From the NCBI GenBank assembly GCA_031425655.1, contig JANPJS010000215.1, positions 1 through 29,956 of the forward strand: 29,956 nucleotides of DNA, written 5' to 3'. The stretch comes from Abditibacteriaceae bacterium. GTDB lineage: Bacteria; Armatimonadota; Abditibacteriia; Abditibacteriales; Abditibacteriaceae. The notes under the pieces are model-generated. The model ran no database searches. It saw only the letters and a list, made by a program, of their open reading frames with translations, and had not been told where the DNA came from. This document shows positions 3,579 to 26,821 of this stretch, piece after piece (the stretch's first letter is position 1; each line of letters begins with the position of its first letter). The position numbers and the translations under genes were made by a program.

Positions 3579-3724
3579 AAATTGGGGTGTTGGGTTTTGG
3601 GTGTTGGGTTTGGGGAAACCGGCGCGATTGAGCAACGAGCTAAGTGTAATAGAGTAGCAAGCCGGATTGTCAACACCCAAAACCCAACACCCGAAACCCA
3701 ACACCCAAAACCCAAAACCTAATT
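3579..3724. repeat. Heptamer-array palindrome (GGGTKTT / CAAMACC units) with a ~55-nt spacer
   Basis: Left arm aattggggtgttgggttttgggtgttgggtttgggg (3580-3615). Right arm is 7 tandem CAAMACC-like units (3671-3719) followed by taatt. The arms are near reverse complements. Confidence 0.95.
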
Positions 3725-14951: not shown

Positions 14952-15017
14952 AGTGCGGAATTGCGAGTGCGGAGTGCGGAATTAAAACTCGACACTCCGC
15001 ACTCCGAATTCCGCACT
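14952..15017. repeat. Heptamer-array palindrome (AGTGCGG / ACTCCGC units)
   Basis: agtgcggaattgcgagtgcggagtg (14952-14976) matches the reverse complement of 14993-15017 at 23/25. It begins immediately after the murJ stop. Confidence 0.95.
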
Positions 15018-15033
15018 CGAAAAGGTGGTTATT

Positions 15034-16789: not shown

Positions 16790-17004
16790 GTTACAGATTC
16801 ACCTTTCGCAGTGGGATGTGTTAGGTGGATCAACCACTCAGGCATTGAGTCATTCTGAGCTTGCGAAGAATCTCGGCCTCTGCGGTGCTTTTGCTCATGC
16901 TCCGTGCGGAGCCTCTTACGCAGAGATTCTTCGCAAGCTCAGAATGACAGCGTTTCTTGAATTTTCCTGCCTAACACACTCCACTGCGTAAGGTGAGTTA
17001 CAGA
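16790..17004. mobile_element. MITE-like element with 27-bp TIRs and 8-bp flanking direct repeats, containing a GTCATTC-type palindrome
   Basis: GTTACAGA at 16790-16797 and 16997-17004. TIRs 16799-16825 / 16970-16996 (24/27). Inner perfect 26-bp IR gtcattctgagcttgcgaagaatctc at 16849-16874 / 16923-16948. Confidence 0.75.
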
Positions 17005-17016
17005 CTAACACCAAAA

Positions 17017-17156
17017 ACTTTTAATGGGACGCGGAGCTTCGCTACACGGATTTCATGCGCGGATTTTCGCTGATTTTTTCTGTAAAACCGCGCCTTCAAA
17101 GCCGTTTCGGGCGCCCTCTGGGCAGGAAAGCGAAGCTCCGCGTCCTATTAAAAAGT
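17017..17156. mobile_element. Gene-less palindromic element related to the GxxExxY-flanking IRs
   Basis: acttttaatgggacgcggagcttcgct (17017-17043) / agcgaagctccgcgtcctattaaaaagt (17129-17156). The left part continues 'acacggattt...cggatttt', as does the 20731 arm. Confidence 0.75.
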
Positions 17157-17180: not shown

Positions 17181-17226
17181 GACAAAAAGGGCACGGTGCG
17201 TTGCAACGCACCATGCCCTTTTTGTC
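17181..17226. terminator. Bidirectional intrinsic terminator
   Basis: gacaaaaagggcacggtgcgtt-gc-aacgcaccatgccctttttgtc, with A/T tracts on both sides, 13 nt downstream of the 17240 stop between convergent units. Confidence 0.8.
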
Positions 17227-18485: not shown

Positions 18486-19265
18486 TTAACAGCAGAAAAT
18501 CGTCAGACGCTTGGGGCCGTGCGCGCCTAAAACCAGAATACGTTCAATGTCGCCGGTGCGACTGGGGCCGGTGACAAAACTCATCAAAGAAGGCAAATCA
18601 TCACCGTATTTGGCGCGCAGAAGCTCAAAAGCGGCAGGTAAATCCGGCAAAATCTGCTCGCGCCGCGCCAAAACGACGTGATGTGGCGTCAAAATCGAAA
18701 GCGCCCGCCCTCCGGCACTGCGCGAAGTGAGAAGCACGCTGCCGGTCTGCGCAATAAGCGCATCGCATTGCGTGATGCCGGCATCGCAGGCTTCGAGCGC
18801 GTTGCGGTCGTAGCCGAATGCGGTCTGCAGAACCGGCAGTTCCAGCGATGGCACAACTTCGGTCAATTCGCCGACGTGAGTAGCGATGCGCTGCCAGCCA
18901 CATTCGTCGCGCAAAGCGCAAAGCGCGTCGGGCAAGGCTTCGATATTTTCCAAGAGATGAAATTCAGCGCGCAGGCCTTCGGCGTTGCGCGCGAAAAGTT
19001 CGGCCCATTCGTCCCACGTTTCGCCGGTTTGCGGCAGCCAGCGACGCCATTGCGGGCCGTTTAAAACGGGAAGAGATGTGCCGCCGGTCTTCCCTCCCCC
19101 GGCCCCTCCCGGAGAGAGGGGAGCGGCGCCTCCCCCTCCGGGGGAGGCTGGGTGGGGGCTTGGGTGAGGGCCATGCGAGCCGGGGTGTGGCGCTGGAATT
19201 TGCAGCGCACGGCGAATCGTGGAAAGCATCGCTTCGCGGGCGCCGAGTTGTTGGTTATTCGTCAT
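18486..19265 (-). CDS. lutC: Lactate utilization protein C (LUD domain)
   Basis: 'IAQTGS', 'GRALSIL', 'FVTGPSRTGDIERILVLGAHGP'. Third gene of lutABC; carries a Pro/Gly-rich insert. Confidence 0.88.
   Translation of the reverse strand: MTNNQQLGAREAMLSTIRRALQIPAPHPGSHGPHPSPHPASPGGGGAAPLSPGGAGGGKTGGTSLPVLNGPQWRRWLPQTGETWDEWAELFARNAEGLRAEFHLLENIEALPDALCALRDECGWQRIATHVGELTEVVPSLELPVLQTAFGYDRNALEACDAGITQCDALIAQTGSVLLTSRSAGGRALSILTPHHVVLARREQILPDLPAAFELLRAKYGDDLPSLMSFVTGPSRTGDIERILVLGAHGPKRLTIFCC
19092..19170. repeat. CCCTCCCC/GGGGAGGG-type palindrome inserted in frame in lutC
   Basis: ccctcccccggcccctcccggagagaggggag-cggcg-cctccccctccgggggaggctgggtggggg. Two small hairpins in inverted orientation, encoding PHPSPHPASPGGGGAAPLSPGGAGGG. 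Confidence 0.75.
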
Positions 19266-20724
19266 TTTTGCCTCCGCGCGACTGCCATTCTTCGTGAAAC
19301 GAGCGTCGTGCCATGCGCGGAAAATCGCGCGCCTCTGTCCACGGTTTCAGCGGGTCAACCGGCGTGCGGTTCACCAGACGATGAAACGGCAGTGCCACGC
19401 GGCCCAGGGCCGTCGCCAATTGCAATAAACGCGGTTTGGTCATCATAAAAGCGAACGCTTTCCACGCCAGATTTTCCAACGCCTGCGGCTTTTCGGTTAC
19501 AGCGTTGCGCCGGCTCTGCAAAAGATGATGGTGCAAATCAATTTTCACCGGGCACGCTTCGGTGCAGGCGCCGCACAGCGACGAAGCGCCCGAAAGATGC
19601 TTCCATTCCTGCAATCCGCGCAGATGCGGCGTGATAACGGCGCCAATCGGGCCTTGATAAGTCGTGCCGTAGGCGTGGCCGCCGACGTTTTTGAAAATCG
19701 GACAAACATTCAGGCAGGCGCCGCAGCGAATGCAGTGCAAAGCATCGCGCTGTTCGGGGTCGGCTAATAAAGTGGTGCGCCCGTTGTCGAGCAACACGAC
19801 GTGCATTTCTTCGGGGCCGTCGCTTTCGCCGTCCCCGCGCGGGCCGGAAAGCATGGTGTTGTATCCGGTCAGCGGTTGACCGGCGCCGGTTGTGGCCAAC
19901 ATCGGCAGAAATAGCGCCAAATCTTCGAGAGTCGGCAGCACTTTTTCGATGCCAAGAATGGCGATTTGCACGCGTGGCAAGCTCATAGTCAGACGTGCGT
20001 TGCCTTCGTTTTCGGTAATCGAAATGCTGCCCGTATCGGCGATGGCGAAGTTGGCGCCCGTAATGCCGACATCGGCTTCCAAGTATTTTTGACGCAGGAC
20101 ATTGCGCGCGATCATCGTCAATTCTTCGGGGCTGTCGCTGGGCGCGGTGCCGAGTTTTTCCTCGAAAATGTCGCTGATTTGACCGCGCGTCAGGTGCATG
20201 GCCGGAAAAACGAAGTGATAAGGCGCTTCTTCGCGCAATTGCACGATGTATTCGCCTAAATCGCTCTCCACAACCTCGAAACCGGCTTCAATCAGCGCCG
20301 CGTTGAGATGAATCTCCTCGCTGGTCATCGTTTTCGACTTGATGACTTTGGCGCCGGCCTTTTTGCAGACTTCGAGGATATAATCGCGCGCTTCCTTGTC
20401 ATCGCGCGCCCAGAAAACGTGCGTGCCGCGCCGGGCGATATTTTGCGCGAACTGGTCAAGATAGCGGTCGAGATGATTGACCGCTTGCCATTTGATTTCG
20501 CCCGCCGCCTGCCGCGCGTCCTGCCACGAAGCGTAGCGCGCCTTGAACTCGTCTCGCTTGAGATAGTAGCCGCTCAGCCCTTTCTGAATCAGCGCGCGAT
20601 GCTTCAAATCGTGCGTCATTTCGTGCGCGTCGTGGAAAAATTGCTTTTTCGCGCTGGCGTGTTCTTCGGAACACGTGTCGGCGGTGTGGCTTTGCGTTGA
20701 AGTTGTTTCGGCTGTGGTGGACAT
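19255..20724 (-). CDS. lutB: Lactate utilization protein B (Fe-S)
   Basis: 'KSKTMTSEEI', 'ESDLGEYIVQL', 'ENEGNAR', 'CIRCGACLNVCP', 'SSLCGACTEACPVKI'. Start at MSTTAE (20724). Confidence 0.92.
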   Translation of the reverse strand: MSTTAETTSTQSHTADTCSEEHASAKKQFFHDAHEMTHDLKHRALIQKGLSGYYLKRDEFKARYASWQDARQAAGEIKWQAVNHLDRYLDQFAQNIARRGTHVFWARDDKEARDYILEVCKKAGAKVIKSKTMTSEEIHLNAALIEAGFEVVESDLGEYIVQLREEAPYHFVFPAMHLTRGQISDIFEEKLGTAPSDSPEELTMIARNVLRQKYLEADVGITGANFAIADTGSISITENEGNARLTMSLPRVQIAILGIEKVLPTLEDLALFLPMLATTGAGQPLTGYNTMLSGPRGDGESDGPEEMHVVLLDNGRTTLLADPEQRDALHCIRCGACLNVCPIFKNVGGHAYGTTYQGPIGAVITPHLRGLQEWKHLSGASSLCGACTEACPVKIDLHHHLLQSRRNAVTEKPQALENLAWKAFAFMMTKPRLLQLATALGRVALPFHRLVNRTPVDPLKPWTEARDFPRMARRSFHEEWQSRGGKNDE

Positions 20725-20730
20725 AGTTTT

Positions 20731-21257
20731 AATGGAACACGGGCTTCGCACACGGAAACGGCAAGGAATTTCACGGATTTTGTAATGGATTTAACGCGGT
20801 TTGTGGGCGTTATCGAGAACTTTTCGTTTGCTTTCCGGCTTGGGGCCGAAGTTGACCAGTAGGCCAACTTCGATTTGCGTGGCTTTCAGATAATTGAGCA
20901 GTTGCGCGGAATGTTCCTCGCAGAGCTTTTCAACAGCCTTAATCTCTACGATAACACAGCCTTCGACCAGAATATCGGCGAAATACTCGCCAACAATCAC
21001 GCCCTCGTAATTCACGTTAATCGGCACTTGCTGTTGAACGCGCAGGCCGCGATTTCTTAATTCGACCAGTAATGCGTTTTCATAAACCCTTTCGAGGAAT
21101 CCATAACCGAGCCGGTTATAAACCGCATAAAAAGCCTCAATAACTCGGCCCGTCAGTTCTCCGTGCTTGAAGTGTTCAGTTCCCATGCCATCACAAAAAC
21201 CAAATTAAAATCCGTGAAAATCCTTGCCGTTTCCGTGTGCGAAGCCCGTGTTCCATT
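20731..21257. mobile_element. 527-bp element: GxxExxY gene flanked by 51-bp inverted repeats
   Basis: 20731-20781 aatggaacacgggcttcgcacacggaaacggcaaggaatttcacggatttt matches the reverse complement of 21207-21257 at 50/51. Confidence 0.85.
20791..21186 (-). CDS. GxxExxY family protein (PD-(D/E)XK nuclease-like)
   Basis: 131 aa with 'LGYGFLERVYENAL', 'ADILVEGCVIVEIKA', 'AQLLNYLKAT..GLLVNFG'. Confidence 0.95.
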   Translation of the reverse strand: MGTEHFKHGELTGRVIEAFYAVYNRLGYGFLERVYENALLVELRNRGLRVQQQVPINVNYEGVIVGEYFADILVEGCVIVEIKAVEKLCEEHSAQLLNYLKATQIEVGLLVNFGPKPESKRKVLDNAHKPR

Positions 21258-21262
21258 GAAAG

Positions 21263-21979
21263 TCATTCGCAAGCCAAAACTTCGGCTAAGTGCAGGCATT
21301 TCATCTTCTTTTTCTGGCGCGAAAGCATTCCTTGAAGGTGCATCAGGCAGCTTGAGTCGTTGGAAACCATGTAATCGGCGCCGGTTTGCAGAGCCGAATC
21401 GCATTTGACTTCGCCCATCGCCACGGAAATATCGGCGTATTTCACGGCGAAGGCGCCGCCGAAGCCGCAACACGTTTCCGCTTCGCCCATTTCGACAAGT
21501 TGCAAATCGCGCACGTTATTCAACAACTCGCGTGGCTGATTTTTGACGCCCAATTCGCGCAAACCGTGGCAGCCGTCGTGGAACGTGATGCGATGCGGAA
21601 AACGCGCGCCAACATCGGTGACGCCGAGCTTTGTCACCAGAAAATCGGAAAATTCCCACACGCGCTCGCTGAGATTGTGCGCTGCATCTTCTTGTGGTGT
21701 GCCCGAAAAAAGCTGCGGGTAAAACACTTTGAGCATCGCCGAACACGAGCCGGACGGCATCACGACGGCTTCGGCGTCTTCGAGAATTTGCATAATCGGC
21801 GCGGCGACTTTGCGCGCTTCGTCCCAGTAGCCGGAGTTGAACGGCGGCTGTCCGCAACACGTTAGGCCTTGCGGCACGACAACGCTGTGGCCCAAGCGTT
21901 CCAACACGCGCACCACGCCCCACGCGGCTTTGGGATAAAACGCATTGGTGTAGCACGGAACAAAAAGCGTGATTTTCAT
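21263..21979 (-). CDS. lutA: Lactate utilization protein A (CCG-domain Fe-S protein)
   Basis: 'LFVPC', 'CCGQP.FNSG', 'PSGSC', 'FHDGCHGLR', 'CCGFGGAF', 'SSCLMHL'. Confidence 0.92.
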   Translation of the reverse strand: MKITLFVPCYTNAFYPKAAWGVVRVLERLGHSVVVPQGLTCCGQPPFNSGYWDEARKVAAPIMQILEDAEAVVMPSGSCSAMLKVFYPQLFSGTPQEDAAHNLSERVWEFSDFLVTKLGVTDVGARFPHRITFHDGCHGLRELGVKNQPRELLNNVRDLQLVEMGEAETCCGFGGAFAVKYADISVAMGEVKCDSALQTGADYMVSNDSSCLMHLQGMLSRQKKKMKCLHLAEVLACE

Positions 21980-22185
21980 TGCTCTCAGTTTAACGATGTG
22001 AACAGTTTTTTCAGCAATTTATTCGCACTCGGAAGAATTTCCGGGACGCGAAGAATTACTTTTCAAGTTCGGCGAATTTAACATGGCGTTAACGGAGCGC
22101 GCTTTGTAGAATTGAAAAGGCTTCCAGCGCACAGAGTTCCATGCGGAACCGTTGCCGCGAAGCACGCACGGCCAAAGAGGTTTTT

Positions 22186-23799
22186 ATGTCGTTTTCATTC
22201 GCTAAGGGCTGTGAGGCAAGCGCTGCATCCTCCGCAATGCACACTTCCGAATTCCAAGACTTTTCCCTCTATGCCGAAGACCGTCCGCAAGAAGAATGTG
22301 GCGTCTTCGGCATTTACGCGCCGGGGGTAGACGTAGCCCGGCGCACTTATTTCGGCATCTTCGCGTTGCAGCATCGCGGGCAGGAATCTGCCGGAATCGC
22401 GGTCAGCGACGGCTCGCAGATGCGTTTGCACACCGACATGGGTTTGGTGTCGCAGATTTTCACGCAGGACACCTTAGACGGGATGCCCGGCTTCATTTCC
22501 GTCGGCCACAACCGTTATTCCACGACCGGCTCGTCCATCGCCTGCAACACGCAGCCGCTGCTCATTGATTCCTCGGATGGCGTTTTGGCTCTCGCGCACA
22601 ACGGCAACCTGGTCAATGCCTCCACGCAGCGCGCCGAATTGGAAGCGCAGGGCGTCGAGTTCCAGACCACGATGGACACCGAAGTTATGGGCCGTCTGCT
22701 CGAAACCTTCTCCGACCGTTCGTTGGAAGAAGCGCTTCTCGAAATGATGCGCCACATTCACGGCGCGTATTCCCTCGTCATGATGACGCACGACACGCTC
22801 ATCGCCATGCGCGACCCGAACGGCGTGCGGCCTTTGTGTTTGGGCCAACTGAGCGAATCCGAAGGCGGCGGTTGGGTCGTCGCCAGCGAAACCTGCGCTT
22901 TGAATGTCGCCGGCGCCGAATTCGTGCGCGAAATCGAGCCGGGCGAGATTCTTTTCATCAATAAAGACGGGCTGGAATCGGTTCACTTCAAGGAAAAGCT
23001 AAATATCCGCGAAGACCGTCCCGCGCTGTGCGTTTTTGAATTTATCTACCTCGCGCGCCCCGATTCGATGTTGCTGGGCACCAACGTGCATCACGCGCGG
23101 CGTCGCATGGGCGAAATTTTAGCCCGACAAGCGCCCTGCGAGGCCGATATTGTCATCGGCGTGCCCGATTCGGGCCTACCGGCGGCCATCGGCTACGCGA
23201 CGGGCAGCGGCATTCCTTATCAGGAAGGCTTGATTAAAAACCGCTACATTCAGCGCACTTTCATCCAGCCCGACCAAACGCAGCGCGAATTGGGCGTGCG
23301 CATGAAATTGACGCCGCTCAAAGATGTATTGGAAGGCAAGCGCGTTGTCGTTGTCGAAGATTCCATCGTGCGCGGCACCACGACCAAACGCATCGTGCAA
23401 ATGATCCGCGATGCCGGCGCGACCGAAGTGCATTTGCGGATTTCCAGCCCGCCGTATCAGTGGCCGTGTTTTTATGGCATTGATACGGCTTCGCGCAAAG
23501 ATTTGATTGCTTTTCAGCGCAGCGTCGAAGAGATTCGTCAATATAACGGCGCCGACTCGCTTTCGTATATTTCGATGGAAAACCTCATCGAAGCCGTCGG
23601 ACAGCCCAAAAGCGTGTTCTGCCGCGCGTGTTTTGACGGCGAATATCCGATTTCCATCCCGCACGACGTAAAATACACCAAGCTGCTGCTGGGCGAAGAC
23701 AACGCAGGCCAAAGCAACGGCCTGGTGTCGTCGGGCGACCCCGGCCCGGAAAGCGAAAGCGACTTGCGCGAGTTGGTCGGCGAAACCGCAGGCGCCTAA
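22186..23799 (+). CDS. purF: Amidophosphoribosyltransferase
   Basis: 'EECGVFG', 'LQHRGQESAG', 'GHNRYSTTG', 'AHNGNL', PRPP loop 'VVEDSIVRGTT', Fe-S cysteines 'CFYGID', 'CRACF'. Start uncertain: 22186 has an AAGAGG SD, 22237 is an alternative. Confidence 0.93.
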   Translation: MSFSFAKGCEASAASSAMHTSEFQDFSLYAEDRPQEECGVFGIYAPGVDVARRTYFGIFALQHRGQESAGIAVSDGSQMRLHTDMGLVSQIFTQDTLDGMPGFISVGHNRYSTTGSSIACNTQPLLIDSSDGVLALAHNGNLVNASTQRAELEAQGVEFQTTMDTEVMGRLLETFSDRSLEEALLEMMRHIHGAYSLVMMTHDTLIAMRDPNGVRPLCLGQLSESEGGGWVVASETCALNVAGAEFVREIEPGEILFINKDGLESVHFKEKLNIREDRPALCVFEFIYLARPDSMLLGTNVHHARRRMGEILARQAPCEADIVIGVPDSGLPAAIGYATGSGIPYQEGLIKNRYIQRTFIQPDQTQRELGVRMKLTPLKDVLEGKRVVVVEDSIVRGTTTKRIVQMIRDAGATEVHLRISSPPYQWPCFYGIDTASRKDLIAFQRSVEEIRQYNGADSLSYISMENLIEAVGQPKSVFCRACFDGEYPISIPHDVKYTKLLLGEDNAGQSNGLVSSGDPGPESESDLRELVGETAGA

Positions 23800-24521: not shown

Positions 24522-24523
24522 AA

Positions 24524-24601
24524 GGTGGTTAGGTTGTTGGGTAGTTGGGTGGTTTTACACTCAACTACCCAACAACCCAACCACCTAACTACCCAACCAC
24601 C
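24524..24601. repeat. Octamer-array palindrome (GGTNGTTR / YAACNACC units)
   Basis: ggtggtta ggttgttg ggtagttg ggtggttt ... caactacc caacaacc caaccacc taactacc caaccacc. Starts 2 nt after a stop codon and abuts the purM ATG. Confidence 0.95.
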
Positions 24602-25785: not shown

Positions 25786-25887
25786 AGGGATGAAGGCGGA
25801 AGGATGAGGGATGAAATGCGGTGCTTCGCACCGTTAAGATTTGCGCCGCAGGCGCTTTTCATCCCTCATCCTTCCGCCTTCATCCCT
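25786..25887. repeat. Heptamer-array palindrome (ARGGMKG units), perfect 31-bp IR with two internal hairpins
   Basis: agggatgaaggcggaaggatgagggatgaaa (25786-25816) is the exact reverse complement of 25857-25887. The loop holds cggtgc-ttc-gcaccg and gcgcc-gca-ggcgc. Confidence 0.95.
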
Positions 25888-26374: not shown

Positions 26375-26458
26375 CTTCAGAATTAAGAGTTTTGAATGCA
26401 GAATTTAGAAATGAAATGCTTTTCTAAATTCTGCATTTAAAATTCTTAATTCACTGAA
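26375..26458. repeat. AT-rich heptamer-array palindrome (GAATTWA-like units)
   Basis: gaattaagagttttgaatgcagaatttagaaa (26380-26411) matches the reverse complement of 26421-26452 at 30/32. It fills the whole Tyr-Thr spacer. Confidence 0.93.
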
Positions 26459-26576: not shown

Positions 26577-26738
26577 ATGGCGAATAAGAATCAAACCAAT
26601 TTGTCGCTGGCGTGCAGCGATTGCAAAGAGCGCAACTATCAGACGTCGAAGAACAAGAAAAACGTCAAAGAGCGCTTGCGTCTCAAGAAGTTTTGCCCTC
26701 GTTGCCGCGCACACACCGAACACGCGGAAACGCGCTAA
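26577..26738 (+). CDS. rpmG: 50S ribosomal protein L33 (Zn-binding C+ type)
   Basis: Not in the ORF track (53 aa): [53 protein letters not shown], in the canonical position before tRNA-Trp/secE. Confidence 0.95.
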
Positions 26739-26740
26739 CA

Positions 26741-26816
26741 GCAGTTTTGAATTATAAGTTTTGAGTTTTGAGTTTCCAAATTAACTCAAAACTCAAAATT
26801 TACAACTCAAAACTGC
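26741..26816. repeat. Heptamer-array palindrome (AGTTTTG / CAAAACT units)
   Basis: 26741-26774 matches the reverse complement of 26783-26816 at 31/34. It starts 2 nt after the rpmG stop and ends 5 nt before tRNA-Trp. Confidence 0.95.
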
Positions 26817-26821
26817 CGTTT

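Follow-up and report, generated by a model that had tools for sequence, protein, structure and literature searches.

A GxxExxY gene enclosed by inverted, phased-word arms between lutA and lutB of an Abditibacteriaceae bacterium: a candidate repeat-armed selfish cassette

The 29,956-nt stretch of DNA analysed here (the window, which is the whole of contig C215 of the 6-Mb Abditibacteriaceae genome G000) contains a small cassette between the genes lutA and lutB, in which a single GxxExxY gene is enclosed by two arms that are inverted repeats of each other. Comparisons with related genomes and with loci from many phyla make it highly probable that this cassette belongs to a class of units, each composed of a gene plus its arms, that turn over at the DNA level. 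The reading that we prefer, at a probability of roughly 45%, goes further: the window would hold a repeat-armed GxxExxY cassette that is likely selfish, the encoded nuclease being predicted to recognise and cut its own folded arms, and host repair or replication copying the unit.

The cassette fits tightly between its neighbours. The cores of the two arms agree at 50 of 51 positions; a BLAST comparison of the two flanks gives 98% identity over 51 nt at E 6.6e-24, and a weaker similarity extends over 66 nt at 89% (coordinates are given in Table 1). The upstream arm consists of AATGGAAC followed by phased CACGG-type words, and the only open reading frame (ORF) between the arms encodes 131 amino acids on the minus strand. 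One arm core begins 5 nt from the lutA stop codon (21263-21265) and the other ends 6 nt from the lutB ATG (20722-20724), while the outer edges carry no direct repeat or target-site duplication, the sequence being CTTTC on one side and AAAACT on the other. In all these respects, the initial annotation of the stretch, which had described this arrangement, was borne out by coordinates and alignment.

Inverted arms and their phased words

The initial annotation had proposed that gene and repeats form one mobile unit, and had reasoned that this would be doubtful if GxxExxY genes generally lacked such flanks; generally, they possess them. Seven of the nine GxxExxY genes of G000 have a flanking inverted repeat (E 2e-5 to 7e-24), and none was found at the other two, on contigs C54 and C106. 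As a chance control, 340-nt spans were drawn at random from G000; among 1500 of them, two had such a repeat at E<=1e-5 and none at E<=1e-9. In a sample of the phylum, comprising 71 near-full-length family members from 43 other genomes that were collected by profile search and thus independently of their likeness to one query (partial matches and G002:C110 were left out), an inverted repeat is present at 53 loci at E<=1e-3, at 45 at 1e-5 and at 24 at 1e-9. Two further collections were assembled: set A, 80 loci with proteins 56-77% identical to the window protein, whose record titles name Chloroflexota, Bacteroidota, Acidobacteriota, Planctomycetota, Nitrospirota, Desulfobacterota and others; and set B, 80 metagenome loci with proteins 51-72% identical to the paralog on contig C45. 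Inverted repeats at E<=1e-3 flank 36 of the 80 loci in set A and 52 of the 80 in set B. Within G000, the arm sequence differs from cassette to cassette while the build is common to all, with an outer end (e.g. AATRGAAC, TTAACC or TGAACC) followed by two to six short, regularly spaced words (e.g. CGCCAAGA three times, CGCAAAG three times, GACGGGAAG and CACGGATGAA).

The simplest alternative is coincidence, that is, an ordinary small gene with a dispersed palindromic repeat inserted independently on each side of it. Such repeats are abundant, given that the genome contains 822 hairpins and that the arm family of the window is found at 28 loci. However, the proportions of flanked genes in the genome (7/9) and in the phylum (53/71), compared with 2/1500 random spans, contradict coincidence, each cassette has its own arm sequence, and the class of word follows the protein clade (see below), so that this explanation is exceedingly improbable and was rejected.

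The words have a direction and follow the protein subfamily. In set A, words of the CRCNGAT type occur 203 times in the sense orientation and 59 times reversed within the 200 nt upstream of the gene, the bias is inverted downstream (191 reversed versus 51 sense), and the far flanks contain about 50 such words each; at least two words are present on both sides at 53 of the 80 loci. When the words in the 150 nt on either side of the gene were counted, set A had 307 of the GAT type (CRCNGAT) and 13 of the RAG type (CRCNRAG), with 76 of 80 loci GAT-dominant, whereas set B had 8 and 432, respectively, with 77 of 80 loci RAG-dominant. The words also recur at different intervals, with a period of 9-10 nt for set A and 8-9 nt for set B. 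A tree was built for 79 proteins of the phylum, of which 47 could be labelled GAT or RAG and 32 stayed unlabelled; the word class requires four changes on it, compared with 10.1 on average and never fewer than 8 when the labels were shuffled 500 times. The mapping of word to subfamily is not one-to-one, because the paralog on contig C126, which is 44% identical to the window protein, also has GAT-type words. Protein identities of 56-66% correspond to a divergence that would scramble unconstrained non-coding DNA, and therefore selection acts on the words. It should be noted that the members of each set are kin, so that the counts speak for the joint inheritance and selection of gene and arms and do not, by themselves, establish binding.

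The two arms also change in concert. The comparison covered five related cassettes: that of the window, its C228 paralog, and those that G001, G002 and G003, which are further species of the genus, carry at a single orthologous site. Among them, 96 changes are matched in both arms, 73 affect one arm, and 29 are unmatched in both; the cassettes of G002 and G003 differ by 13 matched, 5 single and 1 unmatched change. The proteins of the five cassettes are mutually 70-78% identical. That the window arms have nonetheless kept 50 of 51 positions complementary indicates that complementarity is maintained, either by selection on the folded form or by copying from arm to arm.

Filled, empty and replaced sites and gene-less copies

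A junction on contig C193 is empty in G000, where two genes overlap at a TAATG stop/start (C193:13438), and filled in G001, G002 and G003, where a co-oriented cassette of about 510 nt with the ends AATRGAAC...GTTCYATT occupies the exact spot and the upstream gene reads into the arm. No target duplication is apparent in the comparison of the filled and empty states. The same junction in G005, which belongs to another genus, contains a gene-less hairpin of yet another word family. The presence of the whole unit in three species, together with the lack of any hairpin in G000, implies that gene and arms can arrive or leave together. Hairpins without a gene also come and go: one in G002 (contig C17) is absent from the corresponding position in G000 (contig C72), where a terminator is followed after 13 nt by the next ATG, again without a duplication, and two more orthologous spacers carry hairpins of different families in G000 and in a sister genome. 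At the C228 site, the outer end is common to all four species of the genus and the gene is present only in G000; G001 and G003 have gene-less hairpins, and in G002 (C265:5620-6600) a single arm precedes some 600 nt of phased, roughly 11-nt units (TTATTTTCTGC-like), which create a long spurious ORF. For the C45 cassette, synteny with G001-G003 begins 15 to about 100 nt past the 3' arm, and the upstream flank has no counterpart there.

At the lutA-lutB junction itself, the gene is absent from all eight relatives in which lutA and lutB are linked, and each has a different filler: 33 nt with a 10-bp stem in G008, a solo arm in G007, and gene-less hairpins of 100-250 nt from several word families in G012, G014, G021, G022, G023 and G024. 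Stable synteny of gene and repeats in lut operons without empty alleles, which the initial annotation had named as the finding that would speak against mobility, was thus not observed, and filled and empty alleles exist at other sites. The accompanying statement that lutABC is normally contiguous holds for these eight relatives and fails for four, as lutA is separated from lutBC in G001, G002 and G003, all of the same genus, and in G017, which represents another genus. In G002, lutB follows queF-like and M15-peptidase-like genes, and lutA is located between glutaminase-like and sulfite-reductase-like genes. An origin of this split at a hairpin was considered and found to be unsupported in G002, where no hairpin remnant was seen at the breakpoints.

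The arm of the window cassette is not confined to that cassette. At E<=1e-3, the 51-nt arm has 32 matches at 28 loci of G000, its own two arms included, and the other copies are mostly gene-less hairpins of 115-135 nt; nine loci of the arm family that were folded form hairpins of about this length with short loops and the ends TTTCAATGGAAC...GTTCCATTGAAA. As gene-less copies end in TTTCAATGG...CCATTGAAA, the full element in the window probably reaches to within 1-2 nt of both lutA and lutB. The arms of each of the seven flanked cassettes of G000 occur at 8-57 loci, and the 822 hairpins of the genome-wide census comprise 49 of the GAT type, 128 of the RAG type and 645 of other families.

Gene and arrays also co-occur across the phylum. 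In a sample of 121 genomes, whose counts include kin and are therefore not independent, the gene is present in 44. At least ten arrays of three RAG-type words were found in 30 of these 44 genomes, compared with 6 of the 77 genomes that lack the gene (medians 36.5 versus 1); reading the pattern backwards as a control gave 256 matches instead of 3738.

The GxxExxY protein and a possible route of spread

The 131-residue protein matches PF13366 (PDDEXK_3; E 2.7e-43, 147.5 bits with a cut-off of 22) and TIGR04256 (E 1.7e-42, 144.4 bits with a cut-off of 35) and no other Pfam or NCBIfam profile. The name-giving motif is G29-F-L-E32-R-V-Y35. Five residues are invariant in 78 sequences (E32, Y35, D71, K83 and Y99), and two more, E81 and Q95, are conserved in at least 90%; D71, E81 and K83 form the PD-(D/E)XK core, so that the full set of residues is conserved, and Q95...Y99 constitutes a QxxxY motif. 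This motif is typical of the Cas4/RecB group. The AlphaFold2 (AF2) model, with a predicted local distance difference test (pLDDT) score of 94.7, has a restriction-endonuclease-like alpha/beta fold. The best structural matches are Cas4 SSO0001 (4ic1; Foldseek E 9e-5; VIA Z 8.0, root-mean-square deviation (rmsd) 4.4, 104 aligned residues) and the nuclease domain of BpuSI (VIA Z 8.3, rmsd 3.1, 97 aligned), with further matches to Hjc resolvases (2wcz, Foldseek E 1.6e-3), lambda exonuclease and MGME1; these Z values lie in a commonly seen range and thus indicate the fold class and nothing finer. The likeness to Cas4/RecB-family and Hjc-type nucleases therefore consists of the nearest solved folds and of the E, D, ExK and QxxxY residues. 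In contrast to Cas4, the protein is small, has no cysteines for an Fe-S cluster and lies in no CRISPR context, and the match to it at the sequence level is weak (E 0.0064 in PADLOC, whose profiles of anti-phage defence proteins gave one other hit, likewise weak, to PDC-S02 at E 0.006). A sequence search of the PDB yielded no match at E<=1, and a search of the phage protein families in PHROGs none at E<=0.001.

On the preferred reading, the protein would bind the phased words, and the period of 9-10 nt in the window's subfamily suggests that several copies would probably be arranged along one face of the helix. The substrate would be the folded arms, either as a DNA hairpin or as a cruciform, and a cut at the arms would start the copying of the unit by host repair or replication. 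The arms might also supply the homology by which the gene gets into a gene-less hairpin of its own family. Without a promoter of its own, the cassette would be read through from the host operon; pairing of the 51-bp stem in the resulting transcript would loop it out, so that the lutA stop and the lutB start would come to lie side by side.

Several observations weigh against this scheme. PD-(D/E)XK enzymes are hydrolytic and form no covalent intermediate with DNA, which means that this enzyme cannot by itself act as a transposase. Common descent of a unit that is moved by other means may account for the link between protein and word; sets A and B each consist of kin, and the tree holds at least four switches of word class. 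No inverted repeat was detected at E<=1e-3 at 44 of the 80 loci of set A, at 28 of the 80 of set B and at a minority of the phylum sample. Fewer than ten RAG arrays are present in 14 of the 44 genomes with the gene, and one of the six gene-free genomes that reach ten has 90. The shared outer ends at the C228 site fit gene loss and gene entry equally well. As three relatives of the same genus carry lutA elsewhere, no sister genome offers the exact lut junction in an empty state, and the copy in the lut operon is not recent, as its protein shares just 70-78% identity with those of the nearest copies.

A further difficulty is that a second, unrelated type of gene is packaged in the same way. G000 contains seven four-helix-bundle genes (TIGR02436; contigs C74, C92, C262, C26, C54, C193 and C253), of which four have an inverted repeat at E<=1e-7, two a weaker one and one none. 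Their arms are made of 6-7-nt words unlike those of the GxxExxY genes (e.g. GTGAAA, GAGTTTT and GACGAAT), and words of this kind fill the lutA-lutB spacer of G012. As these proteins have no nuclease fold, their presence in like arms suggests that the hairpin may be the primary unit and the protein perhaps cargo. On that explanation, the hairpin would be mobilised by another function and the small genes of both families would be passengers, with the nuclease, for example, cutting gene-less hairpins of its own class and the gene being copied in via homology of the arms. Two unrelated protein families in packaging of the same kind, the excess of hairpins (822) over genes (9 plus 7), the C228 outer end in all four species of the genus with the gene only in G000, and arms of 40-60 nt, which would be long enough for homology, all fit this explanation. 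It is nevertheless unlikely, because the unit at C193 including its arms is present in three species while no hairpin is found in G000, because subfamily-specific words would still require each protein to read its own arms, and because no hairpin-moving enzyme turned up, although no search aimed at one was made.

The cassette is also arranged along the direction of transcription. At the 65 loci of set A that could be evaluated (15 were left out, 14 with short flanks and one without a long ORF), both neighbours are co-directional with the gene in 47 cases, both are opposed in 3, and the remainder are mixed (8 and 7). A scan of positions 20400-22300 for sigma-70-type promoters revealed no promoter-like site, although the phylum may use other promoters, and a scan of the same region for terminators revealed one terminator-like site, inside lutA and thus none at the cassette, which is fewer than in shuffled sequences. 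The sense-strand RNA is predicted to fold with the arms paired (minimum free energy -230 kcal/mol, z -10.1 against 100 shuffles), so that the cassette would be looped out of the operon transcript with the lutA stop beside the lutB start.

These features would also be expected if the arms acted in RNA, forming a stem that is processed (in the manner of RNase III) or that insulates or stabilises messages, as in the intervening sequences of 23S rRNA, with a housekeeping or regulatory protein and a unit that is domesticated and fixed. The paired fold, the co-orientation of 47 to 3 and the placement exactly between a stop and a start codon agree with such a role, as does the fact that the four-helix-bundle genes, whose family occurs in rRNA intervening sequences (PMC4990558, accessible part), share the packaging. 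However, arm mismatches in 36 cassettes comprise 27 that are G:U-compatible in the sense RNA, 19 in the antisense RNA and 38 transversions, and this lack of a clear G:U excess gives no support to a constraint purely at the RNA level. In addition, the words themselves are conserved across phyla beyond what pairing requires, units are present, absent and replaced at orthologous sites at the DNA level, and the cassette has no match in Rfam at E<=1. An explanation by RNA function alone is thus quite improbable; it should be noted, however, that an RNA role and DNA mobility are compatible with each other.

Relation to known systems and further features of the window

In gene-less copies that are short, dispersed, non-coding and bounded by inverted ends, the units resemble MITEs, the miniature transposable elements with inverted repeats. 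In contrast to MITEs, they show no target-site duplication at the compared sites, and their full-length form has no transposase of a known class; the definition of a MITE therefore does not fit, at the window site or at the filled/empty pairs. Free-standing homing endonuclease genes are small nuclease genes that lie between conserved genes without disrupting them and that are present or absent among relatives. The cassette is similarly wedged between conserved genes and variably present, but inverted arms, gene-less copies and many unrelated insertion sites set it apart from classical site-specific homing.

The closest analogy is with repetitive extragenic palindromic (REP) elements and their REP-associated tyrosine transposases (RAYTs). 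RAYTs are HUH Y1 enzymes of the IS200/IS605 type, and REP elements are 20-40 nt long with a GTAG or CGTC end. As in the 'REPtrons' formed by REP/REPIN elements with RAYT (TnpA-REP) genes (PMC3116915, PMC3337134, PMC3733652 and PMC8266576, in their accessible parts), an enzyme gene lies between its own cognate inverted repeats, many gene-less palindromic copies are found in intergenic regions, gene and repeats co-occur across genomes, and the repeat sequence varies with the gene lineage. Unlike RAYTs, the enzyme has a PD-(D/E)XK and not an HUH Y1 fold; the arms are arrays of 40-60 nt composed of phased 7-10-nt words (51-66 nt in the window) with the conserved end AATRGAAC; several GxxExxY subfamilies coexist in one genome (nine genes in G000), with proteins 56-77% identical across many phyla; and the cassette lies inside operons along the direction of transcription. 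Neither the GTAG nor the CGTC tetramer occurs on either strand of the window arm. With no HUH enzyme and no GTAG/CGTC REP, membership of the REP/RAYT family was ruled out. The REP/RAYT-like relationship that the initial annotation had suggested is thus supported as an analogy, by the subfamily words, the gene-less copies, the filled and empty sites and the co-occurrence of gene and arrays, while the four-helix-bundle genes in like arms weigh against its simple, nuclease-driven form.

Intervening sequences of 23S rRNA, of which the one in Coxiella carries an S23p/four-helix-bundle ORF (PMC4990558, accessible part), likewise consist of a small ORF with inverted repeats on its two sides, which pair into a long stem in the transcript; they are regarded as selfish, and their ORF family has the same phased-word arms in G000. 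The window cassette differs in residing in a protein-coding operon and not in rRNA helix 45, and in having an ORF of another family. Its site between lutA and lutB ruled out an rRNA-type intervening sequence.

Intergenic arrays of short phased words have themselves been reported: GGGAATC heptamers in Xanthomonas, where each genome has 70-75 convergent pairs with the potential to fold into stem-loops, and arrays in Nostoc (PMC4692102, 2015), as well as TAACTGA arrays in Beggiatoaceae and others (PMC4679880, 2015). In contrast to the present case, both papers regard the arrays as simple repeats, as formers of quadruplexes or as regulatory sites and name no partner gene, and neither main text contains the word 'nuclease'. 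A link to the cyanobacterial short tandemly repeated repetitive (STRR) sequences was also considered; no cyanobacterial locus was compared, and the literature offered nothing useful.

The GxxExxY/PDDEXK_3 family is large and has no assigned function. A survey of the superfamily from 2012 lists it as 'Unknown' with 'multiple transfers' (PMC3424549), and a passage in another paper mentions it only as a domain beside a reverse transcriptase. No paper that ties GxxExxY genes to flanking repeats was found in the one library searched. New here are the table of words for two subfamilies, the finding that gene and arrays co-occur across the phylum, the concerted changes of the arms, the orientation bias, and the filled, empty and replaced sites within one genus. 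Short phased intergenic arrays have long been described with no enzyme to go with them (PMC4692102, PMC4679880), and tying the family and the arrays together yields a testable function, in which inverted arms are read through a simple word code specific to the subfamily (CRCNGAT with a period of 9-10 nt, CRCNRAG with one of 8-9 nt). The 160 loci of the two subfamilies represent a natural table of specificities that can be tested by word swaps, and the unit is a candidate for a new way in which DNA spreads without a known transposase. Tentatively, phased-word hairpins might, together with the small proteins encoded inside them (GxxExxY nuclease and four-helix-bundle protein), constitute a large, undescribed class of selfish DNA across bacterial phyla, that is, a second REP/RAYT-like partnership in which a hydrolytic nuclease reads a subfamily word code on folded DNA, and might be the source of many of the unexplained intergenic arrays of heptamers to decamers. 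For genome annotation, such a class would explain hundreds of hairpins per genome (822 in G000), assembly breaks, and extra small genes in conserved operons.

The operon, the cassette and the further hairpins of the window are listed in Table 1. Apart from the cassette, the window holds at least eight gene-less phased-word hairpins, with words such as GGGTGTTGGGTTTT, AGTGCGGA, GGATGAAGG and AGTTTTGAGTT.

Table 1. Coordinates of the cassette, the neighbouring lut genes and further hairpins in the window
Feature	Position	Strand	Description
lutA-like gene	21263..21979	-	two CCG cysteine-rich domains; intact; upstream neighbour, on the strand of the cassette
Upstream (5') arm, on the gene's strand	21207..21257	-	51-nt core; weak extension 21196-21261
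GxxExxY / PDDEXK_3 gene	20791..21186	-	131 amino acids; PF13366 and TIGR04256 profile matches
Downstream (3') arm	20731..20781	-	51-nt core; weak extension 20727-20792; reverse complement of the upstream arm except at a single position
lutB	19255..20724	-	TIGR00273 at 488.8 bits, above cut-off; intact; downstream neighbour, on the strand of the cassette
lutC-like gene	18486..19265	-	LUD domain; last gene of the operon
Phased-word hairpin	3582-3722		
Phased-word hairpin	14952-15022		
Phased-word hairpin	16799-16996		
Phased-word hairpin	17019-17153		outer end TTTTAATGGGACGCGGAGCTTCGCT, of the same kind as in the cassette arms
Phased-word hairpin	17181-17226		
Phased-word hairpin	24523-24601		
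Phased-word hairpin	25786-25887		
Phased-word hairpin	26380-26452		
Phased-word hairpin	26737-26820		

Each arm of the cassette contains the heptamer GCTTCGC or its complement GCGAAGC (20743-20749 and 21239-21245, the latter reading GCGAAGC on the plus strand in the upstream arm). The oligonucleotide d(GCGAAGC) is an unusually stable DNA mini-hairpin. Related copies, in relatives as well as in G000 itself, lengthen this motif by matched pairs (AGCC-TTC-GGCT, CGGC-TTC-GCCG), which gives a small side hairpin within the arm.

Several contigs of G000 (C96, C162, C160, C184, C43 and others) end in or beside hairpins of the arm family, and orthologous regions of G003 join two G000 contigs at a hairpin; phased-word hairpin repeats appear to break the assembly of this genome.

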